64,000 nucleotides of DNA. It comes from Myxococcota bacterium. GTDB taxonomy: Bacteria > Myxococcota > JAJVIH01. Below the pieces are notes generated by a model. The model had not been told where the DNA came from and made no database searches. It worked only from the letters and a program-made list of their open reading frames with translations. Location of the stretch: assembly GCA_022072125.1 (NCBI GenBank), contig JAJVIH010000021.1:700-64699 (forward strand), written 5' to 3'. Both the position numbers and the translations under genes were made by a program. Shown here piece by piece: positions 1 to 19,518 of this stretch (its first letter is position 1; every line of letters starts with the position of its first letter).

Positions 1-30
1 TTTCCACGTCGTGACACTCGAAGACGGCTC

Positions 31-425
31 CGGTTCACCCCCACGTGCGTGGGGACAACTTTGCGTTCCTTTGTTAGATGTAATTAGCAACCGGTTCACC
101 CCCACGTGCGTGGGGACAACGCTCCATAACTCAGCAAGTACCAATTGTCCGGCGGTTCACCCCCACGTGCGTGGGGACAACCCCAAGCTGCGCCGTGTCT
201 AGCGCAGCCACGGCGGTTCACCCCCACGTGCGTGGGGACAACGAAAAGGAACCATAGATTGCGCTGTAAAAAAACGGTTCACCCCCACGTGCGTGGGGAC
301 AACTTGTTGGCGATGTCAACGGTTCGCGCGATTTTCGGTTCACCCCCACGTGCGTGGGGACAACAACGCGTAGGTTTTGGTTTTCCGTGAGACGGTCGGT
401 TCACCCCCACGTGCGTGGGGACAAC
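31..425 (-). CRISPR. Type I-E CRISPR array: 7 identical 29-bp repeats and six full 32-bp spacers; truncated by the window start
   Basis: Repeat CGGTTCACCCCCACGTGCGTGGGGACAAC at 31, 92, 153, 214, 275, 336 and 397 (61-bp period). The reverse complement GTTGTCCCCACGCACGTGGGGGTGAACCG has the I-E hairpin and the ...AACCG end. Orientation is from adjacency to cas2 and the AT-rich leader end. Confidence 0.99.
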
Positions 426-443
426 ACTAAAAAAAACCTGTAT
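426..443 (-). promoter_or_regulatory. Very short CRISPR leader remnant (18 bp between the cas2 stop and the first repeat)
   Basis: Minus strand reads TAA-atacaggttttttttagt-GTTGTCCCC; the T-rich ...TTAGT end resembles I-E leader/repeat junctions. Confidence 0.6.
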
Positions 444-716
444 TTACGCCATCCGAACCAGAAAAATCCCCTCGAAGTCTTCGACCGATCGCGCCGATTT
501 CCCCCAGCTCAGGACCCGGAAGCCCTGTTCATTATCACTCGAATGAATCATCACGCAACTGCCTTCACCGGCTTGGCCGCAGGCTTTTTCCCACAGTTTA
601 TCGCGCACCATGGCTGAAACCCTCCCCACGAAGACCCCCGCTTTCGGCTCCAAAAACCACCGTGTCAATTCTCCCCGCAACCCGATTGGCACGCGCTCAA
701 GAATCAGAACCACCAT
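444..716 (-). CDS. cas2: Type I-E CRISPR-associated Cas2
   Basis: MVVLILERVPIGLRGELTRWFLEPKAGVFVG is the typical Cas2e N-terminus; AGGAG RBS before the ATG at 716; overlaps the cas1 end. Confidence 0.95.
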   Translation of the reverse strand: MVVLILERVPIGLRGELTRWFLEPKAGVFVGRVSAMVRDKLWEKACGQAGEGSCVMIHSSDNEQGFRVLSWGKSARSVEDFEGIFLVRMA

Positions 717-1671
717 CGTTCTCCTCCTTTTCATCCGTGTCCACAGCATAGGAGCGTCCGCCCTCCACTTCTCCCTCCACGGGATCCCACAATGGGCCCG
801 GAGCGACGCCAGCTTGGTCGAACGGACTCTCGCCGGAAGTTCCTTTTTTGGGCAGCATCAGCGCATTCTGAATGTCCGGAATGATTCTGGCCAGAAGCCG
901 CGTTGACACAAACAGGTCGCGGCACATGATCCGCACACTTCGTTCCAGGCCGTCCTTGTTCTCCGCCGCCGCGCGAAAAGCCGCCGGTATCGTGATTTCC
1001 GATTTGTAAAGATCGGCGACATCATAAACGAAGGACAACATCTTTCCGGTGTGGATGAAGCCCAGCGCCGGAGAAAATCCCGCCGAGGCGATGGCTGCCT
1101 GGCAAATGCCATAAAGACACGAATTGGCCGCCGACAAAGCCCTGTTCACCGGGTCCGCGTTGGCCCATTCACCCCGGTAATTGCGGCCGGACCAGGGTAC
1201 CCCGGTTTCCCGGGCGGCTCTGGCGTATGCGCTCCTGACACGAACGCCTTCCATCCCGCGGATCTGTTGCAGGGTCAGCTCCGGATCGAACACCTCGGCG
1301 AATCGCAACTGGTATAACCGGCGCACGGCCTTCATATGAAGCTCCGCATCGGCCCAAACCCGCGCCTGATGAAGAAAATTCGCCGCGCTGCGCGTCTTGC
1401 CCATGCCGGCCGCGTAGAACCGGATTCCCTGTTCGCCGCACCAAGTCACCAGACAACCGTGATCCGCCAGCACGGTCACGGCGGCATGCGTGATGGAGAC
1501 GCCTGGTCCCAGCATGAGCAGCGCCAGATTGGCGCAGGGGACCGGCGCCTTGCCGGATTTGTCGTGTATGGCGATTGCCCGGGCTTCCTGGTCAATGCGG
1601 CAATGCTCGACGTAGAGATAGCTCCAGCCGTCGCTGAATTTGGGCAAAACGTGAAGGTCTTGAACTCTCAG
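697..1671 (-). CDS. cas1: Type I-E Cas1 integrase (start ambiguous: CTG at 1671 or TTG at 1647)
   Basis: SYLYVEH, LLMLGPGVSITHAAV, QQIRGMEG.RVR, NRALSAAN..LYG, GFIHTG..LSFVYDVADLYK are Cas1e motifs. Confidence 0.97.
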   Translation of the reverse strand: MRVQDLHVLPKFSDGWSYLYVEHCRIDQEARAIAIHDKSGKAPVPCANLALLMLGPGVSITHAAVTVLADHGCLVTWCGEQGIRFYAAGMGKTRSAANFLHQARVWADAELHMKAVRRLYQLRFAEVFDPELTLQQIRGMEGVRVRSAYARAARETGVPWSGRNYRGEWANADPVNRALSAANSCLYGICQAAIASAGFSPALGFIHTGKMLSFVYDVADLYKSEITIPAAFRAAAENKDGLERSVRIMCRDLFVSTRLLARIIPDIQNALMLPKKGTSGESPFDQAGVAPGPLWDPVEGEVEGGRSYAVDTDEKEENDGGSDS

Positions 1672-2504
1672 ACCGCCTCCTCCGCGCCCGGCACGGCGAG
1701 CGGCGCAACCGAAAGCAGGCCGAACCCAAATGCCTTTCCAGGGCCGATGCCCTGAACCAGCGCCTCGCGAAAGGCGTCTGGGTCCGTGACTTGCAGAATG
1801 CCGTCGAATTGGACGGAAAACAGGCGTATTCCTTTTGGGCCCTTCCCCTTTTGGTTTTCGTCCGCGTTGTCGTTGGCATTGCTTGGCTTGTTCTTGTCCA
1901 CATGGACATAGCTCGAACTGGCCGTGGCGGAGTTGATGGAGAATCCCACTGATTCGCCCCGGCGGGCAAGCCAGTCCACAAGCTGGCAGGCCGGAACGGG
2001 CACGCGCTTTCCGATGGATTCCTGTTTCTTCAAATCCGGTGATTTTTCACTCAGCCGTTTGGTCGGATTCGCCGCGAGGCGGAATCGCAGACGCTGGTCT
2101 TTCGAGAAGCGCGGATCGAATTGTTTCACCCCGGGGGGCGCCGCCAGAAGATAATCCGCATTGTGAAAGGCATAGCCCCAGTCGGGCTCAACGGCGGACT
2201 GCACGATGATCATCACCCGGCCGTTGGAAAGAGGATCAATGCGAAACAGAAAGTTCGAGTCCGAGGAGCGTTTCTTGTGGACTTGATCCTGGTCCGAGGA
2301 GCATTTGATGTAGACTTGATCCTGACCAAACTCATCCGGTTTGAACGGCTGGAGAAAGTCCGGATCGCGGGTCTTTTGGGTTCCGGACGGAAAAGCCATG
2401 CAAAGGCGCTGGTGGACACGATAGCGATTTCGGAGCCACGAGCGTCCGGGCCTGGGCTGGTCTGGGTTGTCTCCTGCATTAATCAATAGACGGGACAGGT
2501 ACAT
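1668..2504 (-). CDS. cas6e: Type I-E Cas6e/Cse3 crRNA endonuclease
   Basis: MYLSRL start, Y..HQRL..AF, FLFRID, LRFRLAANPTK and C-terminal G-rich loop GIGPGKAFGFGLLS. Confidence 0.95.
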   Translation of the reverse strand: MYLSRLLINAGDNPDQPRPGRSWLRNRYRVHQRLCMAFPSGTQKTRDPDFLQPFKPDEFGQDQVYIKCSSDQDQVHKKRSSDSNFLFRIDPLSNGRVMIIVQSAVEPDWGYAFHNADYLLAAPPGVKQFDPRFSKDQRLRFRLAANPTKRLSEKSPDLKKQESIGKRVPVPACQLVDWLARRGESVGFSINSATASSSYVHVDKNKPSNANDNADENQKGKGPKGIRLFSVQFDGILQVTDPDAFREALVQGIGPGKAFGFGLLSVAPLAVPGAEEAV

Positions 2505-2506
2505 GG

Positions 2507-3628
2507 TTATTCCACCTCTTCCGCGGAAAGCCACCGGCGCCGGGTCTCCAGTGAGCGGAACTTGATAATCTCCTCCCGCTTTTCGATGATTCGATCACGC
2601 CAGCGCGGCTCCTCGGGATTGATGCGGTCCATCCCCATGCCAAGGCCGTATTCGATCATGGTGACGGCGTCATGGCATAGCCTGCAAAGCGAACGCAGGT
2701 CTTCCAGGGTTTCGGCTCCCCCGGCCCTCCGGTAGGTGATGTGCTGGACGGTCATGCGCGGTCCGGACGACTTGCAGAAGACGCACAACCCGGCGTCGGC
2801 TTCAATCCGCTCTGCGCGGCGCTTCCGGTATTCCGTATCCTTATAGTTCGCGCGCGGGCGCGGCGGCGCCGGCGTATATTCCTGGACCGGATCGCCAACG
2901 GTCACCCCCACCTCGCCGCGCAGGACAAATCTCGGCTCGTGGACCGGTGGATCGAAGCAAACCGGCGCGTCATACCACACTTCCGCGTCATCGGGGGCGA
3001 CGTCATTTTCAGAGGCGCGCCGCCATTCCACGAGCGTTTGGACCTTCCTGTTCCGTGGCTTGTCGTCGTCCTTGTACCGCGGGCGCCATGGAATGAACTT
3101 CAACGCGGTGTTCAGGTCGTCATGGCTGGCGGGATTTGTCCACGATTCATCCTTGCCGGGCCTTGCAAGCACCGGAACGGACGGCGGGCAGGACTTGCGT
3201 CCAAGGAAAACCGGCCACTTTGGCGCCGCAACCGCCTCAGCGACCTTCTGGATCCACTTCGCATCACCTTGGAGCGCGACGAGAAAGCTCGCGTCGGCCA
3301 AGTATTCCCGGCGCGTGATGAGCGTGCCCTTGGCGCCGGTCCTCACATCACCCCCAGCGGTTGTCATACCGGTTCCGGCTCCCACCGTGTGGTAATCCCA
3401 CCAGAGCGCGCCACGGCGATCCACGCGCACGCCCATCGAAAGAGCATTCAACTCCGGCAGGCGTTGCCGCGCCTGCTCACGCGACAGCCCCATGGCGCAG
3501 CAGACGAGGCCCAGCACACCGGACTTGGTTGGGACATCCATGGTCCGCCGGATGACGAATTTTGACGTGTCGCCCCATGCCTGAAGGGGGCCTTCGAGGC
3601 GCAGGAAGAGGGTGTTGGCTCCGGTCAT
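2507..3628 (-). CDS. cas5: Cas5e fused to a C-terminal HNH endonuclease (Cas5-HNH)
   Basis: Residues 1-~245 are Cas5e (LRLEGPLQAWG, PTKSGVLGL, DYHTV, REYLADASF, FLGRKSCPPS). After a Pro-rich linker comes C282xxC285...QH296ITY...ED310L..LC315xxC318H319, a Zn-binding HNH. Confidence 0.93.
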   Translation of the reverse strand: MTGANTLFLRLEGPLQAWGDTSKFVIRRTMDVPTKSGVLGLVCCAMGLSREQARQRLPELNALSMGVRVDRRGALWWDYHTVGAGTGMTTAGGDVRTGAKGTLITRREYLADASFLVALQGDAKWIQKVAEAVAAPKWPVFLGRKSCPPSVPVLARPGKDESWTNPASHDDLNTALKFIPWRPRYKDDDKPRNRKVQTLVEWRRASENDVAPDDAEVWYDAPVCFDPPVHEPRFVLRGEVGVTVGDPVQEYTPAPPRPRANYKDTEYRKRRAERIEADAGLCVFCKSSGPRMTVQHITYRRAGGAETLEDLRSLCRLCHDAVTMIEYGLGMGMDRINPEEPRWRDRIIEKREEIIKFRSLETRRRWLSAEEVE

Positions 3629-4800
3629 ATTCCCGCCTCCACCGGCGCAGTGGGTGATTCCACTGTCCTCATGACCTCCCCGACAAAGGTGTCGAACTTG
3701 TCAAACTCGCGGGAACCGTCCACGGGTTGTTCCTGCTCGTGTTCCTTCTTCTGCCTGTCGATCCAGGTCAGGCGATGGCGAAGACCCGGCGAGAACCAGA
3801 AACGTTCGGCCTCGACGCCGTAACCTTCAATGAGTTCGTGGGCGTACTGGCCCAGTCTGGCGATGCTTTCGCCGATCAAACCACGTGTGGACTTTTCCGG
3901 CACTGGATCGGCGAAGGCGTTGGCGTAGCTGATCGGCGTGGCCTGCCTGGTTTTGATCTCCACCAGAACTCCGTCGGGCGGATTGAATGCCGCGTGGGAA
4001 TGTTGCTTGCCCGAGGGATTGGCCTTGACCGCTGCTTCGAGGAAGCAGCGGATGGTCGTCTTGGCGAGTTCCTCATCACCCCCGAGGTTCGTCTTCAACT
4101 GCTCGAAGTCAATGACGAAGTGTTTGTAGAAGCAGGCCGAATTGAACATGGCCTCGTTGACGTGGGCGGCGCCGGCGTCCTGGCCGGGCACATCGTCGGC
4201 GGCTGTGAAGTAATCCACCTCGTTGACGACCGCGTGAGTCGAGATGGCGTGAGCGGCGGAGAGCGCGGCCTCGACCGTGAACTTGCCTTTGAGAACCTTA
4301 AACGGCTCCTTTGCATCGAATTCCGTCATACGGCCGCAAAGTGCGATGTCGGGTGTCTTGACAAACTCGCCGATGATCTCGGCGAATTTCTTTCCCAGGT
4401 TACCGTTTCCGTCACGCACGGCAGCGCCCATTTTCTGGATGGCGGATTGGGGGAGAAAGAAGAGCGCATCGAAAGTGTTCTCATCCTTCTTCAGGCCGAC
4501 CCCCCCTTCTTCAAAGACCTTTCGAATGGCCTTGCAATGTTGCTCTTTAGGTGGATTGCCTTCGTCCGCCGCCTCCTTCGCGATGAGTTCGATCAGCCGC
4601 CGTGTACGCACGCCGCCGTCCTTCTCCAAAGCGGCGGAAAACTCCGGGCTGCGCCGGATGCTGCGTTTGAGACACTGGCTGGAGATGCGCGCCCGGGTGA
4701 AGCCGCCAAAGATGCAGGTCTTGGGCGCGCCCAGGTCATCCCGGTTCAGGTTCGCCGGGCCGTGGTTCTGGATCATGTGGATTTCGATCAGCATGTTCAT
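3625..4800 (-). CDS. cas7: Type I-E Cas7/Cse4 backbone
   Basis: IEIHMIQNHGPANLNRDDLGAPK, RARISSQCLKR, DIALCGRM, VDYFTAADD, NPSGKQHSHA. Confidence 0.97.
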   Translation of the reverse strand: MNMLIEIHMIQNHGPANLNRDDLGAPKTCIFGGFTRARISSQCLKRSIRRSPEFSAALEKDGGVRTRRLIELIAKEAADEGNPPKEQHCKAIRKVFEEGGVGLKKDENTFDALFFLPQSAIQKMGAAVRDGNGNLGKKFAEIIGEFVKTPDIALCGRMTEFDAKEPFKVLKGKFTVEAALSAAHAISTHAVVNEVDYFTAADDVPGQDAGAAHVNEAMFNSACFYKHFVIDFEQLKTNLGGDEELAKTTIRCFLEAAVKANPSGKQHSHAAFNPPDGVLVEIKTRQATPISYANAFADPVPEKSTRGLIGESIARLGQYAHELIEGYGVEAERFWFSPGLRHRLTWIDRQKKEHEQEQPVDGSREFDKFDTFVGEVMRTVESPTAPVEAGI

Positions 4801-5414
4801 ATTTCCTTTCTGGTTGTTGAGTTGGTATCTGTTCCGCTTCCACTGTTTTGCTCCGCCGCATCATCCGGAACTTTTGAATTAGCGGCGCCGAGATATTTTT
4901 CCGCCCAGATGTCTCGTACATCGCGTTCGAGGCGGTGCTCCTCGCCCCGGTCCCAGATGGAGAGATGGTCGAGGAGTTTCACCCAGTCAATGCCGTTCAC
5001 ATCCCGCGCATGGGGTACGCGCCCGGCGACGGCCCGGGCGGCCTCTCCCAGCGCCCAGCGCAAATGCGGCTCCAGGGAAGACAAGGACGAGCAAAGCAGG
5101 GCGTCGAATCGTTGCCGGAAGCGCTTGCGGCCATTTTCGTCGCGTGGTTCGCAGCGGCCCAGAACTACAGGCAACCACAGTTCGTCTGAACCGGACGGAA
5201 CGGGGAACGCGCCGAAAAGCTTGGCCACGAGCCATGACGGCTCCCGGCGAGGAGCCGCCTGATTTTCCTTCCGCAGCGGCCACCACAGGCCCGTGAAGAG
5301 GTCGAAACCCGGGAGCGTTTCGTCGAGCGGCCGTCCGGCCAGACGGCGCAACCGCGAGCGTTCGCCTTCCTGCAAGTTTGAAAGCTTCTGGATGTATTCA
5401 GCGGTCGGACTCAT
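4797..5414 (-). CDS. cse2: Type I-E small subunit Cse2/Cas11
   Basis: Helical protein between cas8e and cas7; GERSRLRR, RFDALL, IDWVKLLDHLSIW, WAEKY. Confidence 0.88.
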   Translation of the reverse strand: MSPTAEYIQKLSNLQEGERSRLRRLAGRPLDETLPGFDLFTGLWWPLRKENQAAPRREPSWLVAKLFGAFPVPSGSDELWLPVVLGRCEPRDENGRKRFRQRFDALLCSSLSSLEPHLRWALGEAARAVAGRVPHARDVNGIDWVKLLDHLSIWDRGEEHRLERDVRDIWAEKYLGAANSKVPDDAAEQNSGSGTDTNSTTRKEI

Positions 5415-7156
5415 TTTGAGCCTCCCTTCTTGCGGCCGCGTTTTGCTTTGCCAGGCGCGGCTTCAGCCGCGTCTGCGTTCGATGGTTGATCCGGCTTCTC
5501 TACCAGTTCTTTGATCTTGTTGTTCAGCAGGTATTCCGCGTGTTTCAGCGCGGCGCGCCGGCGAAGCGGTGAGCCGGGTGTGACGGAAGCGACAATTTGT
5601 TCGACGACCGGCTCGTAAAAAACCCAAAGAAACTTGTCGACCTCAGCGTCGGGTTGTTTGAGAGCGGCCCGCAGGCGGGACTCGGCGTCGGGTATAGCCA
5701 ATACAACAGCAGCATTGACTTCGGGGTGATCATCCTTGCCCGTCTTCTTGTTGGGTGTGGTGCACTTGACGAGAGAGCGCAGACCCTCGCGAATGCTCGC
5801 GGAGCGTTCGACGCGCTGACTAGCCGCCTCATTCGGAACGGACACGCTTGTCGCGTCTTGGAACGTGAAATCGTTTACGACGGGACCGATGGCGGATACT
5901 TTGCCTTGGCGTTGACCGCGAAGACGAAGGGCGTCGCGCCAGAACCTGCTTGCTTGAATGCCCGCATCCGCGTTCAAGTCGGGCAAGCCGAGAGCTTCCG
6001 CGTCTTTCAGCAGGTGCGGGTCCTCATCCCAGAACTTCTTGACCTGCGTGTCGTTCTTGCGCAGATGCGGCGCTTCCTGTTTGGTTGCCTTCTTGGTCAG
6101 TTCCTTGATCGCCTGATGATTGGCCGCAGTGAAAAGCTGGTGGAAGACGCGGGCGATTTTCTGTTCATCGGGTTCAGGATTTGGCGCAGCGGCGGCGGGG
6201 GTGTCGGCCGCATCAAGCGCCGCCATTCTGCATTTGCCGATGAGTTGAGCGACCTTGACTACTTTGTTGGCCAGCCTGCGCTCTTTTGTTTCTTTTGACT
6301 TGTAACCATTGTTGATTTTCTGGAACTCGGCCAAGACGTCCTTTCCGAATTGCTGGCCCCGGGTGACGGGAGTGGGCCACCCTCTCTCAATTGATAGGGT
6401 TTTGACAGGCGTTCCAATTTGCCCACAGTTTGCACAAGGACCATTTTCCCCATCGTTATTCAGCCAGAACTTGCGGGGCCGCCAGGCAAGCAGGGCCACC
6501 GTGTCAGGTGAATCCGGCTGCTTGTTGCTTAACCATGGAGCCTGATCAACTTGCGGATTTTTTTCTGGAAGGTTCGCGCAAAGAGTATGGAGCAGGTTCC
6601 TCTCTTCAATCAATGCATAAGCCGCGGAGCCGGGGTTGACTGATGCGGGATAATGCCCGTTGGCCGGAGCCCAGACCGAGAGCCGCAAGATTCCCATCGC
6701 GCAACAAGCGGGGCAAAACCCATAGGAATCATCATACACAACATGGCGCATGTGATTCACCGAATTCGCTCCAGGGAACTCGACGAGCAGATCGCCGATG
6801 GGCCGAGGCTTTATTTTATTTTGCAGCGAGGCGTCCTGATAGAACCTTTTGCCATCGCCCAGCAGATTGAACGCGGCCCGGTTTGCCTCCAGCTTCGCCA
6901 GCCAGTTTTCCGGTATGCCCGCGCTCGACTCGTCCAGTTCCGCAAGGGAAGACTTGGCGTCCTCCTTGCACCACATGAGCACGGCCAACAGAAATCGCAG
7001 GAGCGCCACCCTGTCCATCGGGTTGCTGGCGGCTATCAGCCGGATCTGGTGCGCGCCGGTCAGCGCCTGGAGGATGCCCACGCGATCCACTTTCCCGTTG
7101 CTGTAAAGAACGGGTATCCACTTTTCGCAGAGCAGGTTGTATGATGAAGTACTCAT
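5411..7156 (-). CDS. cas8e: Type I-E large subunit Cas8e/Cse1 (581 aa)
   Basis: YNLLCEKWIPV, FNLLG..RFYQ, FCPACC, NLLHTLCANL, WRPR, CxxC, DPH. True start is the ATG at 7156 after an AAGGA RBS; the upstream part of the 841-aa ORF is not coding-like. Confidence 0.92.
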   Translation of the reverse strand: MSTSSYNLLCEKWIPVLYSNGKVDRVGILQALTGAHQIRLIAASNPMDRVALLRFLLAVLMWCKEDAKSSLAELDESSAGIPENWLAKLEANRAAFNLLGDGKRFYQDASLQNKIKPRPIGDLLVEFPGANSVNHMRHVVYDDSYGFCPACCAMGILRLSVWAPANGHYPASVNPGSAAYALIEERNLLHTLCANLPEKNPQVDQAPWLSNKQPDSPDTVALLAWRPRKFWLNNDGENGPCANCGQIGTPVKTLSIERGWPTPVTRGQQFGKDVLAEFQKINNGYKSKETKERRLANKVVKVAQLIGKCRMAALDAADTPAAAAPNPEPDEQKIARVFHQLFTAANHQAIKELTKKATKQEAPHLRKNDTQVKKFWDEDPHLLKDAEALGLPDLNADAGIQASRFWRDALRLRGQRQGKVSAIGPVVNDFTFQDATSVSVPNEAASQRVERSASIREGLRSLVKCTTPNKKTGKDDHPEVNAAVVLAIPDAESRLRAALKQPDAEVDKFLWVFYEPVVEQIVASVTPGSPLRRRAALKHAEYLLNNKIKELVEKPDQPSNADAAEAAPGKAKRGRKKGGSK

Positions 7157-7175
7157 GATTCTTTCCTTTTCAGAC

Positions 7176-7204
7176 ATATTACAGTGAAATTTCACGCGCT
7201 GCAA
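7176..7204 (-). promoter_or_regulatory. Sigma70-like promoter for the I-E cas operon with an internal 12-bp palindrome
   Basis: Minus strand TTGCAG-N17-TAATAT; GTGAAATTTCAC (7184-7195) lies in the spacer. Confidence 0.5.
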
Positions 7205-7564
7205 GCTGCGCCCGGCGTAAAGGGACCGGCGCCAGCCGGGCGTGGTCCACCGGATATGCGGCCGCGTCGTTGATGGTGTGCGCCAGTCTCCCGGAGGTGT
7301 TGAAACCACTGAAAGCCTGGCGTCCACGATGGAGCGGCTGGAGTGTTTCGCGCGCCGCGACCATGCTCTCGCGACGGTTCGCGGAGAGCGGCGGTGATTT
7401 TGATGGATGTATCCTTGCACCGTGGCCGTCCGGAATGGAAAATGTGAGGTATTGACGGAATCCTGCAACGTGCTCGTGCGGAGCGGGCCCGGAATCTCCC
7501 GTCTCACACGGGAGAGCGGCGTGCGCCGGGACGAGCAAACAGCGCTGTTCGAGGGAGACGAAAG

Positions 7565-8782
7565 ATGAGCACCATGGCGACCACCGAAAGGCGCGCGCAG
7601 CGGCTGGCGCTGCTCGTCGGATCGAACCCGCTCCCCAACTACCTCGCGGCCTGCGCGCTGCGACCGAGCCGCATCGCACTCGTGTACACCGAGCAGACCA
7701 GAGAGGCGAAGGACCGCCTTGGGGGCGAGCTGACCAACATTCTGGGCAGCCATGTCGCCGTCGACGAGCCGTTCGTGGAGGATCCAACCTGCGCCACGAC
7801 GGTCCGTCGAGTCCTCGATCCGTTCATGCGGAGCGAAGCCGGCGGAGAAGTGCTCTTGAACTACACGGGCGGCACGAAGGTGATGGCCGCCCACGCCCGG
7901 CTGGCCTTCTCGTGCTTGGGTGGGCGGCCAGAACATGCGTCGTACCTCGACGAGGGCGGCATGGACCGTCCACCGCGACTGCGCTTCGACGACGGGAACT
8001 CGAAGCCTCTCTCCGACTACCTCGAGATCCCGCTGACGCTAGCTACGGTGCTCGCACTACACGGCATCACGCACAAGCCGCAGGGGACCCCGGCTTCCAC
8101 GACCGACGATGCGTGCCAGATCTTGTGCAAGGTGCTGGCGGACCCGCCCCTGGCGGCCAAGCTCTACAGCGAGCGCAAGCGGCTTCAGAAGCTCGGCAAC
8201 CCGAACAAGGCGATATCGGAGCCCTTCCGGGCGGACCGCTACGGCTTGTCGCTTAGCCTGCAGGAGTTCCCAACGGAGACACAACTCAGTTCATTCAAGA
8301 ACAGCAAAGAGAAGGAGTCCTGGTTCAAGCAGTGGTTCTCCTTCATCGGCGGCGAGTGGCTGGAAATATGGCTTGGCGACCAGATCCGCGCGCTCGAACG
8401 GGATCCAAAGCCCGAAATCACGGTCGGAGTGAACGCATACCGCGGCGACAGTAGGGCGCAGCTCGAGGTTGATGTCGCCGTCGTCCGCAGTCACCGATCC
8501 TACTTCATCTCATGCACGACGGATCAGACAAAATCGCTCTGCAAGTCCAAGTTATTCGAGGTGGCTGTCCGCTCCCGTCAACTCGGAGGAGACCTCGCCC
8601 GGGCCGCCGTGGTCTGCCTCGCTGATGACCAAACGGTCTCCGCGCTACAGAACGATGTCGATGACGTATGGGGTGCCAGCAACACGACCAGGGTCTTCGG
8701 CATCTCGGACGTCCGCGCGTGGTCCGACTGCGAAGGCAAGCAGCCGAGCCGGCAGAAGCTGAAGGAATGGTTGGAGAGCTGA
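7565..8782 (+). CDS. CARF + PD-(D/E)xK-like nuclease effector (Card1/Can2, DUF1887-like)
   Basis: CARF motifs LLVGSNPLPNY and LNYTGGTK; C-terminal GEWLE...EVDVAV...FISCTT; first gene of the type III operon. Confidence 0.85.
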   Translation: MSTMATTERRAQRLALLVGSNPLPNYLAACALRPSRIALVYTEQTREAKDRLGGELTNILGSHVAVDEPFVEDPTCATTVRRVLDPFMRSEAGGEVLLNYTGGTKVMAAHARLAFSCLGGRPEHASYLDEGGMDRPPRLRFDDGNSKPLSDYLEIPLTLATVLALHGITHKPQGTPASTTDDACQILCKVLADPPLAAKLYSERKRLQKLGNPNKAISEPFRADRYGLSLSLQEFPTETQLSSFKNSKEKESWFKQWFSFIGGEWLEIWLGDQIRALERDPKPEITVGVNAYRGDSRAQLEVDVAVVRSHRSYFISCTTDQTKSLCKSKLFEVAVRSRQLGGDLARAAVVCLADDQTVSALQNDVDDVWGASNTTRVFGISDVRAWSDCEGKQPSRQKLKEWLES

Positions 8783-8783
8783 G

Positions 8784-10451
8784 ATGGCGGTGATCACAGG
8801 AATTGATGTCCTCGGTATTCAGAGGTACGTCTTCGCGTCGAACCGGCTCCGGGATGTGCTCGCCGCGTCGTGGATGGTGGATCACGTCCTGGGACGCGAG
8901 GCCGACTCGCTGCTGCAGTGGGGCATGACGGACGACCGCGTCCTGCTCGCCGCTGGCGGAAACGCCGTCGTCAAGTTTGAGAACGTGGAGGACGCAAGAA
9001 CGTGGACCAGGAGGTACACGCGCTGGCTGCAGGACGAGGCGCCGGGACTCGACGTCGTTGTCGCTCACCGGTCATACGATGATCGCCCGCTGGCGTGGGG
9101 GCTCAAAGCGCTCGCCGTGGATCTCGCGCGAGCGAAGCTGGAGCGGCGCCCGAGCGTGCCGCAGCTCGGGCTCAGCGTCACGGCTTCCTGCTCGGTGACG
9201 GGACTACCAGCGACATCGCTCGATCGACACGATCATGCTGCGATCTCGCGCCACATCGAGACGCTCCGACAAGACGAAGTCCAGAGGCGCGCCAAAGAAC
9301 GCTGGGACCGCTACCTGCCGGAGGGGTTGGACCAAGCCCCCGAATGGGCCGCCGGGTTCCCCGACGAACTTGATCTCATGGGCCGCACCCACGGCGACAC
9401 CAGCCTCCTCGGCGTGGTTCACGTGGACGGCAATGGGGTCGGCCAGGCCATCAAGGGGTGGCTCGACCGCTGCCTCAAGGAGGACGTCAAGGACGCGCAG
9501 GTTCGCGCCGAGTTCCGCGAGTGGTCGCGCAGTATCGACGAGCTCGGGGAGCACGTCCTGAGGGCCATCGTCCAGCGGGTCGCGTCCCGCGTCTTCGAGG
9601 AGAACAACGAGCGCGGCGAGAGGCGATTCGTCGTCCGCGGCACGCCGCACGATCTCGGTTTCCCACTGAAGACGTACGAGAAGACGGTGTTTCTCCCGCT
9701 CCGTCCGATTCTCCTTGGCGGGGACGATCTCACCTTGGTGTGTGACGGGCGGATCGCGCTCGACCTTGCCGCGGCGGCACTGAGGGAATTTGGGGTGCGC
9801 CCGATCCCACATCTCGGCGAGAACGGCACCGCGTGGACGCCTACAGCCTGCGCTGGTGTGGCGCTCGTCAAGGCGCACGCACCTTTCCACCGAAGCTACG
9901 ACCTCGCCGAGAGTCTTTGCACGTCGGCAAAGCGTGCGCGGCAGGACGTGAACCAGAAGGGACAAGGATGTTGGCTCGACTGGCACGTGGGCTCGACACG
10001 GCCTGCCGAGACGGTCGAGGACGTTCGCAGGCGCGAGTACCAGGGTGGCGATCTCACGATGCGCCCCTATCCCCTTGCGCCGCTCGATGGCCGTGAGCAG
10101 TCATGGGGCTGGCTCGACACCGAGTTCCTCGGACCCGGCAGCACGTCCGAAACAGCAGGACGAGGCCTCCGCGGTGCAGCATGCTGGGCGGGAAGCCGAA
10201 GCCGCGTCAAGCGGCTCGGCTCGCTCGTACCGGCGGGCAGAGACGATATCCGGCGCCAGATCGAAGCGTGGAACGCGATCGAGGATGGAGTCGCGCTGCC
10301 CGGCGGACTTTTGGGGGATGGGTTTGTCGGGAAGCAGACGCCGCTCCTCGACGCGATCGAGCTGTTGGATCTTCACGTTCGTCTGGAACCCGATCCTACG
10401 GCCGCGGGCTTGGCCGCCAGCGCGGTCGTGAGAGATGAGGAGACCGCATGA
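8784..10451 (+). CDS. cas10: Type III-D Cas10 lacking an HD domain, with an intact GGDD palm
   Basis: Starts directly at IDVLGIQRYVF; CSVTG, VHVDGNGVG, RPILLGGDDL, PFHRSYDLAESL; only 555 aa. Confidence 0.95.
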   Translation: MAVITGIDVLGIQRYVFASNRLRDVLAASWMVDHVLGREADSLLQWGMTDDRVLLAAGGNAVVKFENVEDARTWTRRYTRWLQDEAPGLDVVVAHRSYDDRPLAWGLKALAVDLARAKLERRPSVPQLGLSVTASCSVTGLPATSLDRHDHAAISRHIETLRQDEVQRRAKERWDRYLPEGLDQAPEWAAGFPDELDLMGRTHGDTSLLGVVHVDGNGVGQAIKGWLDRCLKEDVKDAQVRAEFREWSRSIDELGEHVLRAIVQRVASRVFEENNERGERRFVVRGTPHDLGFPLKTYEKTVFLPLRPILLGGDDLTLVCDGRIALDLAAAALREFGVRPIPHLGENGTAWTPTACAGVALVKAHAPFHRSYDLAESLCTSAKRARQDVNQKGQGCWLDWHVGSTRPAETVEDVRRREYQGGDLTMRPYPLAPLDGREQSWGWLDTEFLGPGSTSETAGRGLRGAACWAGSRSRVKRLGSLVPAGRDDIRRQIEAWNAIEDGVALPGGLLGDGFVGKQTPLLDAIELLDLHVRLEPDPTAAGLAASAVVRDEETA

Positions 10452-11095
10452 CGAATGGCACTTCGCCTTCCTTCCTGCAGATCGAGCTGCTCTCCGACAC
10501 CACGTTCAGTCGTGGCGAGGGCGCGGCGGGGGTCGTCGACACCGAGGTCGAGAGGGACAATCTCGGGATGCCGTTCATCGGCGGGAAGACCGTGCGCGGC
10601 CTCCTTCGCGACTCATGGCTCTCCATGTCCCGCCACTTCCCGAGCCTCGTGGACGCGGCCGCGCGGGTCCTGGGGCGGAGCCAGGCCGTCGACGAGTCGT
10701 GTCGGCTGAGGATCGGTGACGCGATGCTGCCTGCGGCGATCCGGGCCGCGGTTCGGGGAGCGGCCGAGCGAGAGGAACACCCGCTCGCGCCGGGAGCCAT
10801 CCTCGACGGCTTCACGAGCATCCGCTACCAGACGGCCGAGGATCGCGAGACCGGCGCTCCGGACGTCACAACGTTGCGGTCGTCACGCCTCGTTCTCCGC
10901 GGCTTCGTGTTGGAGGCGAGTCTCTCCTGGCTCGACGGCTACCGGCCCACAGCGTGCGATATGCGGCTCCTGGCGCTGTGCGCGCTTGCGACCCGTCACG
11001 GCGGGCTGCTTCGGAACCGAGGACGCGGTCATATCCGCATGACCCTGGACGGCGATCTCGAGAAGACGCGGAAATACGCGGAGGCGACGACGTGA
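10448..11095 (+). CDS. cas7: Cas7-group RAMP (Csm3-like)
   Basis: IELLSDTTFSRGEG..GVVD.EVERD..GMPFIGGKTVRGLLR and C-terminal GLLRNRGRGH loop. Confidence 0.9.
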   Translation: MTNGTSPSFLQIELLSDTTFSRGEGAAGVVDTEVERDNLGMPFIGGKTVRGLLRDSWLSMSRHFPSLVDAAARVLGRSQAVDESCRLRIGDAMLPAAIRAAVRGAAEREEHPLAPGAILDGFTSIRYQTAEDRETGAPDVTTLRSSRLVLRGFVLEASLSWLDGYRPTACDMRLLALCALATRHGGLLRNRGRGHIRMTLDGDLEKTRKYAEATT

Positions 11096-12834
11096 GCTCT
11101 TCGGCCGCCCCGACCTACCTCCACTACAGGCTGCAGCTTCGGTCACCAGCCATCGTTTCGACCTTGTCGGGCGATCCCAACAGCATAGCCACGCAGTCCT
11201 TCATTCCAGGGGGCGCGCTTCGCGGCGTCTTGGCCGGTCGGCTTCTCGCGAGCGGCGTCGGTGGAGACGACGAGGAGTTTCGGCGGCTCATCCTCTCCGG
11301 TGAAGTCCGCTACCTTCATGCATTCCCCGAACTGGCAGGAAAACGCTCCCTGCCCAGCGCTTTATCCTGGAAGACCAACAAGGTGGATCCGGCCCGCGTG
11401 ATCGACCTTGCCGCGTTCAGTGGAGCGATCGATACGGCTGTCGATGCCGAAGACTTCAAGAACGTTTGGCCGGAAGAGGGGCTGGCCGCCGTTTCCGCCC
11501 CGTTCGCAGCCGTGTCGGTTTCCAGTGGAGCCCGCGACATCGCGGCTCCATCAATCGGCTCCCGGATCCACCAGCAACGGGATCGCATCAAAGGGCGGCC
11601 ATGGAAGGATCGCGAAGAACAGCCTCATGGCGCGCTCTTCGTCTACGAGTACCTGGAGGCCGAGCAAGTCTTCCGCGGCGCCATCCAGGTCATGCCAGCG
11701 GCTGCCGGAGACATCGAGATCATCAAGCAGTTGCTCGTTTCTAGCCCCATTCTGATCGGGCGATCCCGCCGGGCAGGATACGGTGGTGAGGCTGCCGTCG
11801 AGTTCACCGGGCAGGTGCGGCGAGAGTACGAGAACGTATCCGAATCGGTTTCCCAGGATGTCGCCGCTGGCGAATTGTTCAGGGTGCTTCTTGCCTCCGC
11901 GTATGTGGGCCGCCACCCGGAGACGGGACAGCTCGATCCGAGCGCGCTTCCAGACGAGCTTCTCAGCCGGTTGGGCGGCGCCGCGACGGTCGAGCGCACG
12001 TGCTGGACCTTCGAGGTCGTTGGAGCGTTCAACCAGAAGTGGCGCCTCGAGGTTCCGCAGGCGCAGGCGGTCGCGGCTGGGGCCGTGCTCGTTCTCAAGG
12101 CGACGTCTGCGATCCCCCTGGCCACGCTGCGCGCCATCGAGCACGAGGGCCTCGGCGAGCGGCGGGTCGAGGGCTTCGGTCGGGTGCTGTTCCTGGAGCA
12201 CTCCGACGACCGCGGGACGATTCGGCTGCGGCGCGCCGAGGATCACGAGCAGACGGACGCCACGGCGGCCACAGCCCTCGCGCCCCAGGGCGAGCAGTCT
12301 CGTCGCCAGCTTGATCTCCTGGAACGGAGGATCGTGCTCGCGGCTGCGCGGGCGGAACTGGATCGAGTTGCCGCGCTCGACCTGGCCGCCAAGGCGAAAG
12401 GCAAGCGACCGACGAATAGCCTGCTTGGTCGGCTTCGGACCCTGTTCCGGCGGTCCATGGACGAGCAGGCCGCGCAAGCGGCGCTGGCGAACCTCCGGAT
12501 CTGGTGCAGCGACGACGACGACCATGCTCTCAAGAAGAACGCGCGTGAGCAGCTCGATCGCTGCCTAGTCAACCGCGAGGGGTTCGGCTGTGAGGAGTTC
12601 CGCCGTTGGCTTCGCCGGCTGGCCGAGTCGGATCACGGCGAGCCTGGCTGGGAGGCCCTGGTCCTGGCCTCCGGGAATCAGGCCACGCTGACAGGACTCG
12701 CGGCCAGGAGCCACCTCACCACTGGTGCCGAGGCTGAAGCCGTCCTGCACGAGCACTCGGCACTGCTGCGCGTCCACCTTGTCGACGCGGTCCTGGGCGC
12801 CATGGCCCGCCTGAACCGGAGAGGTGCGACATGA
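11092..12834 (+). CDS. csx10: Csx10 (double RAMP, Cas5-like) with a C-terminal helical Cas11-like domain
   Basis: GTG start overlaps the upstream TGA. FIPGGALRG, IGRSRRAGYG, second RAMP with GLGERRVEGFGRV, then ~170 aa helical tail with RPTNSLLGRLR. Confidence 0.8.
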   Translation: MSSSAAPTYLHYRLQLRSPAIVSTLSGDPNSIATQSFIPGGALRGVLAGRLLASGVGGDDEEFRRLILSGEVRYLHAFPELAGKRSLPSALSWKTNKVDPARVIDLAAFSGAIDTAVDAEDFKNVWPEEGLAAVSAPFAAVSVSSGARDIAAPSIGSRIHQQRDRIKGRPWKDREEQPHGALFVYEYLEAEQVFRGAIQVMPAAAGDIEIIKQLLVSSPILIGRSRRAGYGGEAAVEFTGQVRREYENVSESVSQDVAAGELFRVLLASAYVGRHPETGQLDPSALPDELLSRLGGAATVERTCWTFEVVGAFNQKWRLEVPQAQAVAAGAVLVLKATSAIPLATLRAIEHEGLGERRVEGFGRVLFLEHSDDRGTIRLRRAEDHEQTDATAATALAPQGEQSRRQLDLLERRIVLAAARAELDRVAALDLAAKAKGKRPTNSLLGRLRTLFRRSMDEQAAQAALANLRIWCSDDDDHALKKNAREQLDRCLVNREGFGCEEFRRWLRRLAESDHGEPGWEALVLASGNQATLTGLAARSHLTTGAEAEAVLHEHSALLRVHLVDAVLGAMARLNRRGAT

Positions 12835-14357
12835 GTCCGAACCCGCTCAACGATGCCATGCCGCCCCGCGCTCTAGTAGCGCGGTGGGTCATCCGAGGAA
12901 CGCTGACCATCGACACCGCGCTCCATCTCGGAGGGGAGGGAACCGAGCGGGTGGACATGCCGGTGCTGCGCGATCCCCGTGACGGCAGACCCTTGCTCCC
13001 GGGTACAACCATCGCCGGAGCTTTGCGCAGCGCGCTGGCCGACCGGCTGGCGGGCTACGGACAAGCCGAGCCCAAGGAGGTCGCCGCTCTATTCGGTGCT
13101 GCTCGCGGGGACGACGAAGGCGGCCAGAGCCCGCTCATCGTCTTTGACAGCCTGGGCGCGTTGCCAGAAAACCAATCCGTCGAGATTCGCGACGGGGTCG
13201 CGATTTCCCCGGCAACCGGAATCGCAGAGGACCATAAGAAGTACGATTACGAGGTGCTCCCGGCTGGAACAACGTTCCCGGTTCGGCTCGACCTCCTGTT
13301 GCCCGGCCCATCCACGGATCGCAATGATGCTCGTCCGGAAGAGAAAGAGATCCTTGAATGTCTCGCGGCCGCCCTCGATGCGTTTACTCACGGCGAGAAT
13401 GGATTGGGCGCCAAGCGATCGCGTGGCCTCGGGCGAGTCAGTGCGCGGTGGACCGCGAAACGCTTCGGTCTCGACTCTCGCGAGGGCTGGATACAATGGC
13501 TTATCTCTGACCACGAGCATCCGGTCGTAGCGACCCCGGACCAGGCCTGCATCCGCGACGCGCTCGAGGCCGCTGCGCCGGAGTCTCTCAGGCCGCTCGC
13601 ACTGCCCGGCGACGTACGCACGAGGGTCGTGATCGACCTGAATTTGGAGGTCGGCCATGACATCCTGGTCCGCAGCCCGGGCACGGATCCTGGCGCCCCC
13701 GACGTCTCGCACCTGCACAGCGGGGGCACCGCGATCCTCCCCGGGACGAGCGTCGCGGGAGTGATGCGCGCACAGGCGCTGCGCATCGCGAAGCTGGTCC
13801 GGGAAGGCAAGAACGACGCTAATGAATGGATCGATCGTCTATTCGGCCCGCGCTTTGAGGGGCAGCGTCCCTCGGGAAAGCTGAGCCCCCGCGCGGCGCG
13901 ACTGCGCTTCAGTGAGGCGCGGCTTAAGGGCGGCAGGCCGCAGCGGCAGACGCGGATCGCCATTGATCGCTTCACTCAGGGAGTCGTTGATGGCGCGCTC
14001 TTTGACGAGCAGACGGAGATCGGCGGCCGCGCGATCGTACGGTTGGAATTGCGGAATCCCGAGCCTGGCGAACTGGGTCTCGTGCTCCTCGTGTTGAAGG
14101 ATCTGCTCGATGGGGCGCTGCCCGTCGGCGGCACGGCCAGCGTGGGCCGCGGCGTTCTTCGTGGTTCCGCTACCGTTACCTGGTTCGATGGGACTGGGCC
14201 CCGCCAGCGTTCTGCCCGGATCCAGCCGGGCGAACAACCGGACGGCGATGCGGCTGCGGACATTGATGAGGCGATCCGCGTCTTTCACGAGGCGGGCGCC
14301 CGGGCAGGTGAACCGGCTGACGGGGCGGCGGGCGCCGGAGTGGGGGACTCGATATGA
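12831..14357 (+). CDS. cas7: Tandem Cas7-Cas7 RAMP fusion
   Basis: Two Csm3-like units: LHLGG...VDMPVLRD...PGTTIAGALR...GAKRSRGLG and LPGTSVAGVMR...RIAIDRFT...GGTASVGRG. Confidence 0.9.
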   Translation: MSPNPLNDAMPPRALVARWVIRGTLTIDTALHLGGEGTERVDMPVLRDPRDGRPLLPGTTIAGALRSALADRLAGYGQAEPKEVAALFGAARGDDEGGQSPLIVFDSLGALPENQSVEIRDGVAISPATGIAEDHKKYDYEVLPAGTTFPVRLDLLLPGPSTDRNDARPEEKEILECLAAALDAFTHGENGLGAKRSRGLGRVSARWTAKRFGLDSREGWIQWLISDHEHPVVATPDQACIRDALEAAAPESLRPLALPGDVRTRVVIDLNLEVGHDILVRSPGTDPGAPDVSHLHSGGTAILPGTSVAGVMRAQALRIAKLVREGKNDANEWIDRLFGPRFEGQRPSGKLSPRAARLRFSEARLKGGRPQRQTRIAIDRFTQGVVDGALFDEQTEIGGRAIVRLELRNPEPGELGLVLLVLKDLLDGALPVGGTASVGRGVLRGSATVTWFDGTGPRQRSARIQPGEQPDGDAAADIDEAIRVFHEAGARAGEPADGAAGAGVGDSI

Positions 14358-14998
14358 ACGAGACCGGATCGCCTTGCGCCCTCGCAGGTTGTGACCTGAC
14401 ACCCCTCGATTCCCCGGCCTGCGAGCGATACGTCTCGTGGCTGCTCGGCGAGGAGAACGCCGTCGCGCCCGGGAGCGCAACTAGGCTTGCCTGGGCGCTC
14501 GCCCACTCCGGCGATGGCGTGACATGGGGCCGTTACGATGCGCAGAAAGGAGTTTGGCTCCTTGGGAACCAGGCGGCATCCGATGTGTCGCCGCCGGTCC
14601 GCGCGGAGACGCTGCAAGAACTGCGGCTCTTCGGTGATGGTGGCGAGGTCCTCATTTGGCGGACCGGCGCGGGGCTCCGGGGACGCATGCTTCGTGATAC
14701 CGATCCCGCGGCGGGTTGCGGCGACGAGGCCAATCCCCTACGCCCATCGGAGGAGTGGCGCATCCTGCGCGGCGACCGCATCATCAAGGACGCTGGCCAT
14801 GACTTCACGCATATTGGCGACGGCGCGGGTGCGGAGCAGGTGCTTCCGCTGGCCGTCAGCAGCAACGAACAGCTTCGAGCCCGTCAGGTTCAGCTCGCAG
14901 TGCGCCACTACTACGAGTCCGACGTGCATACGGGCGCCGTCCGCATCGCGGCGACACGCCTCGTCACGCTCAGGTCGGGAGGCGGCCATGGCGCTTGA
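14354..14998 (+). CDS. csx19: Csx19 (TIGR03984-like) type III-D subunit
   Basis: WALAHSGDGVTWG, LQELRLFG..GEVLIWR, VRHYY; position between Cas7x2 and TIGR03986. Confidence 0.85.
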   Translation: MNETGSPCALAGCDLTPLDSPACERYVSWLLGEENAVAPGSATRLAWALAHSGDGVTWGRYDAQKGVWLLGNQAASDVSPPVRAETLQELRLFGDGGEVLIWRTGAGLRGRMLRDTDPAAGCGDEANPLRPSEEWRILRGDRIIKDAGHDFTHIGDGAGAEQVLPLAVSSNEQLRARQVQLAVRHYYESDVHTGAVRIAATRLVTLRSGGGHGA

Positions 14999-16778
14999 GA
15001 AGGGGATCCTCCGTGTGTCCAAGTCTGGTTCGGTGCAGATCGAGGTCGCCACGAAGAAGGGAGGAACCGCGAAGCTGAGCCCAAGCGAGGGCGAGATCTC
15101 GCAAAGCGTGCTCGACCGTCTCGCCGACCTCGCCGGCAAGGAGGTCGAGTTCGAGCGCGTGGAAGGCCAGCCGAAGAAGGTCCGGGAGGCTGGTGGATCC
15201 TTCGTCCCGCCTCGCCGCGAGACCCGAGAAGGTGATCGGGAGAAAGGGCGCGCGGACCGTAGTGGCGGCTTCCAGCCGGGCCGCCGGCAAGAGCGTCAGG
15301 ATCGGAGGGAGGAGATGCCTTGCCGTCAACCCGACTTCCACAACCCCTACAACTTCGTGCCGGCCCCTCCTCGGAACGTCAGCGATCCCGACCTGGGTGA
15401 TCATCGGCCCGTCGACCAGGACGTCTTCCTGGCCGACCGCTACTCCGGCTGGATCCGCGTACGGATGACCGCGAAGACGCCCTTGCTCGTTCCAGATACC
15501 GAGGGAGCCCAGGAGAGCCCGAACGGACACAAGACCTTTCCGCTGCGCGTGGGAGCGGACGGGAGACCGCTCATCCCGGCCTCCAGCGTTCGCGGGATGC
15601 TCCGCGCCGCCTACGAGGCCATCACGAACTCGCGCTTCGGTCGCTTCTCCGAGTCTCACAAACAGAAGCTGAAGTTTCGGCAGAATCATAAGCCGTTCAA
15701 GAAAGTAGACTACAAAACGTCAGCCTGGGACCTGCTCGACGAGTCGCTCCGGCCCGCTGTTGCCATCAATCAACTCTCGCCTGCCGACCGGGTCTTCGGC
15801 TGGGTCAAGGTCGATGCGGACACCGGACCGCGATCGAGGGGCGAGCGCGTGGCGGCCCGGGGGCTCTTACGCGTCGGTCCGGTGCGCTGCATATCGAGCA
15901 CGGCCAATGCAGTTGAGCGGTTCCAGGAGCCGGGGGTTCCGCTCGCCATTCTGTCGGCGCCCAAGCCCCAGCAGGGGCGCTTCTACGTCGCCCGGTCCAC
16001 GAAGGGTGAGGCGCAGAAGAACGGCCTATCCAAGCAGGAAGCGGGCTATTCGGCGGGCAAGGGGCTTCGCGGCCGCAAGGTGTACCCGCATCAGCGCCAC
16101 GGCCACTGGGATGATCCGACCGCGGACCGGACGCAGCAAGCGCACGGTACGCCAACCCACCACTACCAGGAATATCGGCGCCCTCGCAGGGGTGGCCACG
16201 AGCAACGCGACGATCAGAACCGCTCGATCCTCGGCTGGGTCAAGCCTGGCGCGAAGTTTGGCTTTGACCTCCACGTTCAGAACCTGTCAGCCGTCGAACT
16301 TGGCGCGCTCTTGTGGCTCCTTGGCCTCCCGGACGGCTGCTTTTTGCGCTTCGGCGGCGGCAAGCCGCTCGGCTTCGGCAGCGTAAGGCTCGACGTCGAA
16401 TCTCTCGATGTGCGAACTGGAAACGACCTTCGCGCGCGCTATGGCGCGTGGTGCGATAGCACGCCGTCAGCGAACCCGTGCATCACGGTGATTCAAGCCT
16501 TTCAAGAGGCTGTAGTGCGCGCTTACCATGTGGAAAATGGCGGCTTCGACAGTGTGCCCTTCATTGCGGCCTTTCTGACCGCCTGTCAGGGGCATGGGGA
16601 TGGCCTTCCGATCCACTACCCCCGGGCCACGGCGAACGGCAAGCCGGGGCCGCCGCGTCCCGATGGTGAGTCGTTCAAGTGGTTCGTGGCGAACGAGCGG
16701 GATGGAGCGCGATATACGCTGCAAAACCTTGTGAATGATCCGGGGCTTCCCACGCTGCCAGAAAAGGACCGGAAATGA
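14988..16778 (+). CDS. cas7: TIGR03986-type Cas7 RAMP of type III-D
   Basis: FHNPYNFVP, TPLLVP, IPASSVRGMLR..YEAITNS, SPADRVFG, LRGRKVYPH, ELGALLW, GGGKPLGFGS. Confidence 0.9.
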   Translation: MALEKGILRVSKSGSVQIEVATKKGGTAKLSPSEGEISQSVLDRLADLAGKEVEFERVEGQPKKVREAGGSFVPPRRETREGDREKGRADRSGGFQPGRRQERQDRREEMPCRQPDFHNPYNFVPAPPRNVSDPDLGDHRPVDQDVFLADRYSGWIRVRMTAKTPLLVPDTEGAQESPNGHKTFPLRVGADGRPLIPASSVRGMLRAAYEAITNSRFGRFSESHKQKLKFRQNHKPFKKVDYKTSAWDLLDESLRPAVAINQLSPADRVFGWVKVDADTGPRSRGERVAARGLLRVGPVRCISSTANAVERFQEPGVPLAILSAPKPQQGRFYVARSTKGEAQKNGLSKQEAGYSAGKGLRGRKVYPHQRHGHWDDPTADRTQQAHGTPTHHYQEYRRPRRGGHEQRDDQNRSILGWVKPGAKFGFDLHVQNLSAVELGALLWLLGLPDGCFLRFGGGKPLGFGSVRLDVESLDVRTGNDLRARYGAWCDSTPSANPCITVIQAFQEAVVRAYHVENGGFDSVPFIAAFLTACQGHGDGLPIHYPRATANGKPGPPRPDGESFKWFVANERDGARYTLQNLVNDPGLPTLPEKDRK

Positions 16779-18088: not shown

Positions 18089-18097
18089 TGGCCATCT

Positions 18098-18166
18098 GAC
18101 CTGCTTGGGAAAATCGCCAAAAGCACCCAGCTGACAAGAAAGACCATCGCTGAAGTTTTGAGCGGC
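18098..18166 (+). pseudogene. Relic fragment resembling a type III restriction enzyme Res subunit
   Basis: Translates DLLGKIAKSTQLTRKTIAEVLSG with no start codon; resembles the DLxGKIAxxTxLTRxTIxxIL segment of Res proteins (recognised from memory, not searched). Confidence 0.55.
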
Positions 18167-18261
18167 GAACGTGCTCCGGCCGATGGGCCGGCCGCCGGAT
18201 GATTCGGATGCGCTTGCCGCCGAGACGGTCGGTTTGAGTGTGCGTTCGAATTATTCTGAAG

Positions 18262-18297
18262 CCCCCCAATGTTGTATGTATTGGGGGGGGGGGGGGG
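18262..18297. repeat. Inverted repeat plus a G15 homopolymer
   Basis: CCCCCCAAT-gttgtatgt-ATTGGGGGG 9-bp stem; G run at 18283-18297. Confidence 0.85.
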
Positions 18298-18440
18298 TCG
18301 TTTTATGCTTTCTATCTGAAAAGAATCGAAATTTTGATTTATATTTATGCTATTGGAAAAAATCGGAATGATCGCATAGAATCTAGGCGTGTGGTTGTTT
18401 TTGTTTGTTATTAATAGGGTTAATCTACCGAGGAATCGAT

Positions 18441-19271: not shown

Positions 19272-19383
19272 CTGGAATTTCATATAGAGTGGTTGGTATC
19301 TTCCCCCGCCTTGGAGTGCGTTGAATAAGCGTCCCCTGCTGTTTCCAGCCTTACAAAACACTCTATCAACTTTCCCCCCAACC

Positions 19384-19518
19384 CTCCGCCTCGATGATAT
19401 CCGGCGTCAGCAGCGTCAGCCGGGGAATGCGGCCAGCCAGGAACCATCCATCGTGAATGCCCTGGCGAGGCCGGGGCGCGTCCCTGTGCTTGCCCTAATC
19501 TGGAATCTCCCGCCAGCA
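19384..19518 (-). pseudogene. Degraded mobile-element gene fragment (RLTLLxPDIIEA family)
   Basis: Minus frame CWREIPD*GKHR...GRIPRLTLLTPDIIEA with an internal stop; resembles small proteins found beside serine recombinases in integrative elements. Confidence 0.5.

Follow-up and report, generated by a model that had tools for sequence, protein, structure and literature searches.

The closest described system is the Cas5-HNH Cascade of Candidatus Cloacimonetes bacterium ADurb.Bin088, the prototype of its class, which was discovered by Altae-Tran et al. in 2023 (PMC10910872). The prototype interferes with plasmids in E. coli and uses crRNAs with 32-nt spacers. It needs no Cas3 to cut double-stranded DNA, in vitro or in cells, and its cuts are precise and lie at the PAM-distal end; the activity is lost when catalytic residues of the HNH are mutated (PMC10910872). 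The same study describes a progressive loss of cas3 (PMC10910872). Liu et al. (2025) solved the complex by cryo-EM (PMC11794572; PDB 8YB6, 8YHA, 8ZLU and others). In the solved complex, the HNH sits in the second Cas11 position and its active site is composed of H310, D324 and H333. Neither the H310A nor the D324A mutant cleaves, Q309A has almost no activity left, and the use of Asp in place of Asn in the HNH is conserved across the Cas5-HNH family (PMC11794572). Makarova et al. (2025) named the system variant I-E2, "typically lacking Cas3" (PMC12669027).

The window, by which we mean the whole 64-kb stretch of DNA that was analysed, starts with a locus of this kind. We consider it very likely that positions 1-7156 (minus strand) are a complete type I-E, variant I-E2, HNH-Cascade locus with Cas3-independent interference. 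The gene order is cas8e-cas11-cas7e-cas5HNH-cas6e-cas1-cas2, followed by a CRISPR array with 29-nt repeats and 32-nt spacers, all on the minus strand, and all seven cas ORFs are intact, with operon-like overlaps (Table 1).

Table 1. Positions of the features discussed, numbered from the first base of the window.
Feature	Position	Strand	Details
CRISPR array	1..425	minus	7 identical 29-nt repeats, 61-nt period; runs off window start
cas2 (type I-E)	444..749	minus	PF09707, 1.7e-31; 43% identity to E. coli Cas2
cas1 (type I-E)	697..1647	minus	PF01867; 42% identity to E. coli Cas1
cas6e	1668..2504	minus	PF08798, 2.3e-50; best PDB match 8yb6_B, 3e-52
cas5e-HNH fusion	2507..3628	minus	373 aa, one ORF
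linker and HNH of Cas5-HNH	2510-2845	minus	about residues 262-373
H319 codon	2672-2674	minus	HNH catalytic codon
D310 codon	2699-2701	minus	HNH catalytic codon
H296 codon	2741-2743	minus	HNH catalytic codon
cas7e (Cse4/CasC)	3625..4800	minus	PF09344, 2.8e-91; 8yb6_D, 1.6e-96
cas11 (Cse2/CasB)	4797..5414	minus	separate gene; PF09485, 1.4e-09; 8yb6_K, 1.8e-27
cas8e (Cse1/CasA)	5411..7156	minus	581 aa; PF09481, 2.8e-35; TIGR02547; 8yb6_J, 3.1e-39
intergenic region	7157..7564		between the I-E2 operon and the divergent type III-D operon
type III-D module	7565-18088	plus	head-to-head with the I-E2 operon
Card1-like CARF nuclease	7565-8782	plus	
Cas10	8784-10451	plus	short, 555 aa; GGDD motif; no HD domain detected
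Csm6	16775-18088	plus	
AspRS (host)	48573-50369	plus	

The product of the cas5e-HNH gene is a Cas5e protein with a nuclease domain at its C-terminus. Pfam places Cas_Cas5d (PF09704) at residues 6-196 (2.1e-42) and HNH (PF01844) at residues 282-322 (3.4e-07), and the NCBIfam model casD_Cas5e (TIGR01868) matches the N-terminal part (1.6e-47). The Cas5e body takes up approximately residues 1-250, and the stretch beyond it, the linker and HNH, agrees with the C-terminal HNH of about 110 residues that the original prediction had described. Body and HNH are encoded in a single reading frame, and the alignment to chain 8yb6_A runs from end to end. The HNH residues are C282xxC285, Q295-H296, E309-D310 and C315xxC318-H319, and the residue numbers quoted earlier for this motif were correct. 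A plus-strand ORF of 274 aa (2741-3565) lies within the gene. We treated it as a spurious antisense frame of this 62% GC DNA because the minus-strand frame has homology at E 1e-105.

For all five Cascade subunits, the best match among solved structures is the corresponding chain of 8YB6, and the 8YB6 chains beat the canonical chains from T. fusca, E. coli and T. thermophilus by 20-55 orders of magnitude in E-value. Cas5-HNH matches the prototype chain 8yb6_A at E 3.6e-105 over its whole length (HMMER), with 49% identity overall (BLAST) and 59% in the HNH region. The prototype reads TVQHVNYRRAGG, which contains Q309-H310, D324 and H333; in the HMMER alignment, TVQHVNYRRAGGKEIPEDLRALCRLCHDA of the prototype stands against TVQHITYRRAGGAETLEDLRSLCRLCHDA of the window protein. 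The motif TVQH..YRRAGG..EDLR.LCRLCHDA is common to the two proteins, and Q295, H296, D310 and H319 correspond one-to-one to Q309, H310, D324 and H333 of the prototype. The sole local peculiarity of the window protein relative to the prototype is an insertion of two residues, P290-R291, and this is common to about 10 of the 80 relatives described next.

In a pattern-seeded scan with one genome for each GTDB species, at least 145 species encode close relatives of Cas5-HNH. The best 80 of the 145 relatives are 55-80% identical and span Planctomycetota, Synergistota, Desulfobacterota, Acidobacteriota, Armatimonadota, Chloroflexota, Nitrospirota and others, and in a large protein collection there are more than 120 protein clusters with an identity of at least 63%. 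With such numbers, the class is rare, as it had been called, in a relative sense only.

The original prediction also took the locus to be a divergent member of the class, with QH instead of HH or DH at the catalytic position, and here the family does not agree. The prototype itself has Q309-H310. Among the 80 relatives, Q295 is conserved in 77 and H296 in all 80, so that QH is the family consensus and not a divergence. H319 is conserved in 79 of 80, each of the four cysteines (C282, C285, C315 and C318) in 79-80 of 80, and D310 in 64 of 80, with Glu in 15. Nor is the protein as a whole unusually distant: its 49% identity to the prototype falls inside the range of 40-56% (median 51%) found for the family. 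By these comparisons, the locus is a typical rather than a divergent member of a known variant, I-E2, described in 2023.

The remaining genes of the operon are those of a type I-E system. Cas1 keeps the catalytic residues aligned to E. coli E141, H208, D218 and D221, and the segments GMEGVRVR, GFIHTGK and FVYDVADLYK are aligned. The start of cas6e is likely the ATG at 2504 (MYLSRLL...); the listed ORF starts with a GTG at 2534. Within cas6e, positions 2259-2324 (minus strand) are an in-frame tandem duplication of 33 nt, with two copies that are 88% identical. The duplication encodes the peptide QDQVYIKCSSD/QDQVHKKRSSD, in an insertion of Cas6e ahead of the part that matches PF08798.

The start of cas8e is the ATG at 7156, with AAGGAAAG 5 nt upstream. 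A longer ORF of 841 aa (5411-7936) includes the gene, and we considered whether its additional N-terminal part could belong to Cas8 or be left over from a cas3. We rejected both: this part matches no family and overlaps with the divergent Card1-like gene, PF09481 homology starts at residue 267 of the 841-aa ORF, and Cse1 homology begins at the internal ATG at 7156. The phmmer match of Cas8e to 8yb6_J covers the N-terminal ~250 residues only, and the C-terminal half (residues ~254-581; 5411-6400, minus strand) has no phmmer match to the prototype Cas8 or to canonical Cse1 structures. The C-terminal end of Cas8e is a Lys/Arg-rich tail (KAKRGRKKGGSK). A search of window positions 1-20000 against Rfam at the gathering threshold gave no match.

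In canonical type I-E systems, cas3 is encoded with the Cascade operon, whereas here it is absent from the 64-kb window, the part of a 132-kb contig that was covered. We built a Cas3 HMM from 119 type I-E Cas3 proteins and ran it on stop-to-stop frames of at least 40 aa from the window and from the 80 related loci. The model gave 1398 bits for the E. coli cas3 control, and it was sensitive enough to detect an HD remnant of 70 aa in one relative (L079) and, more weakly, one in another (L007). In the six-frame translation of the 64-kb window, it had no match at E<10. The 20 largest other ORFs of the window, scanned with Pfam, matched no helicase or HD family and only housekeeping families, which include aminotransferases, aldehyde dehydrogenases, GluRS, AspRS, TldD/PmbA, malate synthase and isocitrate lyase. 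Three frames across 7157-7936 match no family and no Cas3 HMM, so the gap upstream of cas8e gives no sign of a cas3 remnant. The HMM, Pfam and gap-frame scans, none of which gave a cas3, uphold the claim that neither cas3 nor a remnant is present in the operon, the 7157-7564 gap or the rest of the 64-kb window. Together with the preference of all five subunits for 8YB6, they support, for the 64-kb window, the central proposal of a Cas3-less type I-E HNH-Cascade.

The relatives have the same layout. The order cas8-cas11-cas7-cas5HNH-cas6 is constant in the 80 loci and is followed by cas1-cas2 and an array where these are present. None of the 50 relatives with at least 3 kb of DNA upstream of cas8 has cas3. 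Just upstream of cas8, two loci have Cas3 HD remnants (PF18019; L079:6461-6889, 8.8e-11, and L007:5090-5380, 2.2e-05), which are traces of cas3 loss and fit the progressive loss described previously (PMC10910872). The large ORFs that recur in the flanks of the 80 loci were checked as a possible hidden cas3 and rejected; they encode histidine kinases, WYL regulators, transposases, an ABC ATPase and PutA/aldehyde dehydrogenase.

Directly upstream of cas8, two loci that we scanned encode WYL-WCX-HTH regulators (L002:4046-5104 and L011:3801-4898), and a protein from a third locus (L026:2927-3937) belongs to the same similarity cluster. These three proteins are candidate transcriptional regulators of the operon. 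No WYL-WCX-HTH regulator is present in the window.

That cas1, cas2 and an array are kept had been singled out as a trait of this locus that might make it competent for adaptation without Cas3. All three are indeed present, and keeping them is the family norm rather than an unusual trait: both cas1 and cas2 are kept in 45 of the 50 loci with at least 1.5 kb of DNA after cas6. Naive adaptation in type I-E systems needs only Cas1-Cas2, and Cas3 is needed only for priming. Competence for adaptation without Cas3 is thus expected and not surprising.

How the locus works depends on whether the HNH is its interference nuclease and whether the locus is active at all. It could be a canonical, Cas3-dependent type I-E system in which cas3 lies outside the window, the region that our cas3 search covers, and in which the HNH is an accessory or back-up nuclease. 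We regard this as very improbable, given that cas3 is next to the operon in none of the 50 relatives and that the two with any trace of it have only decayed HD fragments, which indicates loss. Some other I-E nuclease fusions, for example Cas11-PD-(D/E)xK (I-E3), do sometimes keep Cas3 (PMC12669027). However, the HNH of the prototype is alone sufficient and necessary for cleavage, and in the solved complex it takes the second Cas11 position.

Seven intact cas ORFs that overlap like an operon, identical array repeats, and the conservation of all catalytic and zinc-binding residues of the HNH and of the Cas1 active site argue against an inactive or decaying locus, in which Cascade binds DNA like a transcriptional silencer without cutting it, or the operon goes unexpressed. 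Such a locus would be in keeping with two of our results. No protospacer match was found in the phage, plasmid and IMG/VR collections, and no sigma-70 consensus site or terminator was found in 7157-7564, although a simple sigma-70 scan is uninformative for a deep-branching lineage of 62% GC. We give an inactive locus as little chance as a distant cas3, and continue with the reading that we prefer, a complete I-E2 locus with Cas3-independent interference.

For the activity of the locus, its PAM, its cut sites and adaptation, we reason from homology to the prototype. Cas6e, a homolog of the prototype protein, would cut the pre-crRNA at the repeat hairpin and leave an 8-nt GUGAACCG 5' handle. Cas8e, one Cas11, six Cas7, Cas5-HNH and Cas6e would assemble on a 61-nt crRNA; Cas8e would read the PAM, and an R-loop would form over the 32-nt protospacer. 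The HNH, tethered to Cas5, is predicted to fill the second Cas11 slot and to use H296 as the general base and D310 and H319 as metal ligands, with two CxxC zinc knuckles holding these residues in place. Once the PAM is recognised and the R-loop has formed, the HNH would cut first the target and then the non-target strand, both past the PAM-distal end; in the prototype, the cuts fall 3-4 bp (target strand) and 8 bp (non-target strand) beyond this end. With an HNH on Cas5 in the second Cas11 slot, interference should need no Cas3. Cas1-Cas2 would insert new spacers where the array adjoins cas2.

The array has six complete spacers of 32 nt and one that is cut by the window start. The repeat, which reads GTTGTCCCCACGCACGTGGGGGTGAACCG on the minus strand, folds as a hairpin with a 7-bp stem and a 4-nt loop. 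Because its orientation matches that of the E. coli I-E repeat, we infer that transcription of the array runs the same way as that of the cas genes. Sixty relatives have nearly the same repeat, which in all of them ends in GTGAACCG or ATGAACCG.

The position of the array relative to cas2 leaves little room for a leader. The first repeat starts 18 nt past the cas2 stop (with window positions 426-443 in between), the distance is 20-30 nt in most relatives, and a T-rich stretch ending in AGT precedes the first repeat. Since degenerate repeats, where present, are at the cas2-distal end of the array, the leader end would be the one that adjoins cas2, and it must then overlap the conserved 3' end of cas2 (...GACTTCGAGGG.CTTTT...). 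An array that abuts cas2 appears to be a trait of the I-E2 family (L002-L079). Because the array starts 18-30 nt past the cas2 stop in most members, the family may carry its leader within the 3' end of cas2.

Comparison of the array with phages by blastn gave no match, and comparison with plasmids gave only other I-E arrays, through similarity of the repeats. Four spacers, with every sixth base masked, had 0 matches in IMG/VR. With no protospacer in the phage, plasmid or IMG/VR collections, no PAM was inferred.

Facing the I-E2 operon head-to-head is the type III-D module, which encodes, in addition to the proteins in Table 1, Csx10, a Csx7-like double RAMP, Csx19 and a TIGR03986 RAMP. The window contains no array, cas6 or cas1-cas2 that belongs to the module, and the module may therefore rely on the I-E2 array. 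We speculate, while thinking it rather unlikely, that the module loads I-E2 crRNAs processed by Cas6e and, separately, that the I-E2 leader lies inside the cas2 3' end. If the first is true, a single array would drive both a precise DNA cut by the HNH and cOA signalling, activated by RNA and acting through the effectors Card1-like and Csm6. Near the 80 related loci, there are no close homologs of the type III-D genes, apart from a weak match to Csm6 (29% identity) in L013, and the pairing of I-E2 with III-D therefore seems particular to this genome.

No protein in the collection is more than 59% identical to the AspRS of the host, and among named proteins those closest to it are from MAGs that are Deltaproteobacteria- or Myxococcota-like. 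By this marker, the host is from a poorly sampled lineage. In contrast, Cas5-HNH is 79-81% identical to proteins of Synergistaceae, Desulfobacterium and Aminicenantes MAGs. Because Cas5-HNH is as much as 81% identical to proteins of unrelated phyla while AspRS reaches no more than 59%, the CRISPR locus was probably acquired horizontally.

The locus adds one intact, uncharacterised ortholog to a family that was discovered in 2023, solved in 2024-25 and classified as I-E2 in 2025, and it has little importance beyond cataloguing. It could serve as a candidate for a compact, Cas3-free Cascade for genome editing, possibly with a different PAM. The census, in which cas1-cas2 are kept in 90% of loci, cas3 is absent from 50 of 50, HD remnants occur in two and the array abuts cas2, may help those who study spacer acquisition by I-E2 systems in the absence of Cas3-dependent priming.

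Among known systems, the locus most resembles the Cas5-HNH prototype. The two have the same five Cascade genes in the same order, an HNH at the C-terminus of Cas5e with the same Q-H, D, H and two CxxC, no cas3 (here, in the 64-kb window), 29-nt repeats and 32-nt spacers. They differ in Cas11, which has 205 aa in the window and 174 aa in the prototype, and in the C-terminal half of Cas8e, which here has no detectable similarity. With the canonical type I-E system of E. coli K-12 (cas3-casABCDE-cas1-cas2), the locus shares the Cascade architecture, processing by Cas6e, the repeat hairpin and the logic of the 8-nt handle. However, the nuclease here is on Cas5, and in the prototype the HNH replaces one Cas11; whereas the canonical system shreds its target processively, precise double-strand cuts are expected here. 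The type I-F4 Cas8-HNH Cascade of Selenomonas sp. (PMC11459484, PMC11480323) is likewise a Cas3-less type I Cascade with an HNH, but its HNH lies within Cas8f and not on Cas5, it was acquired independently, the backbone is that of type I-F, and the cut geometry is different (5' overhangs).
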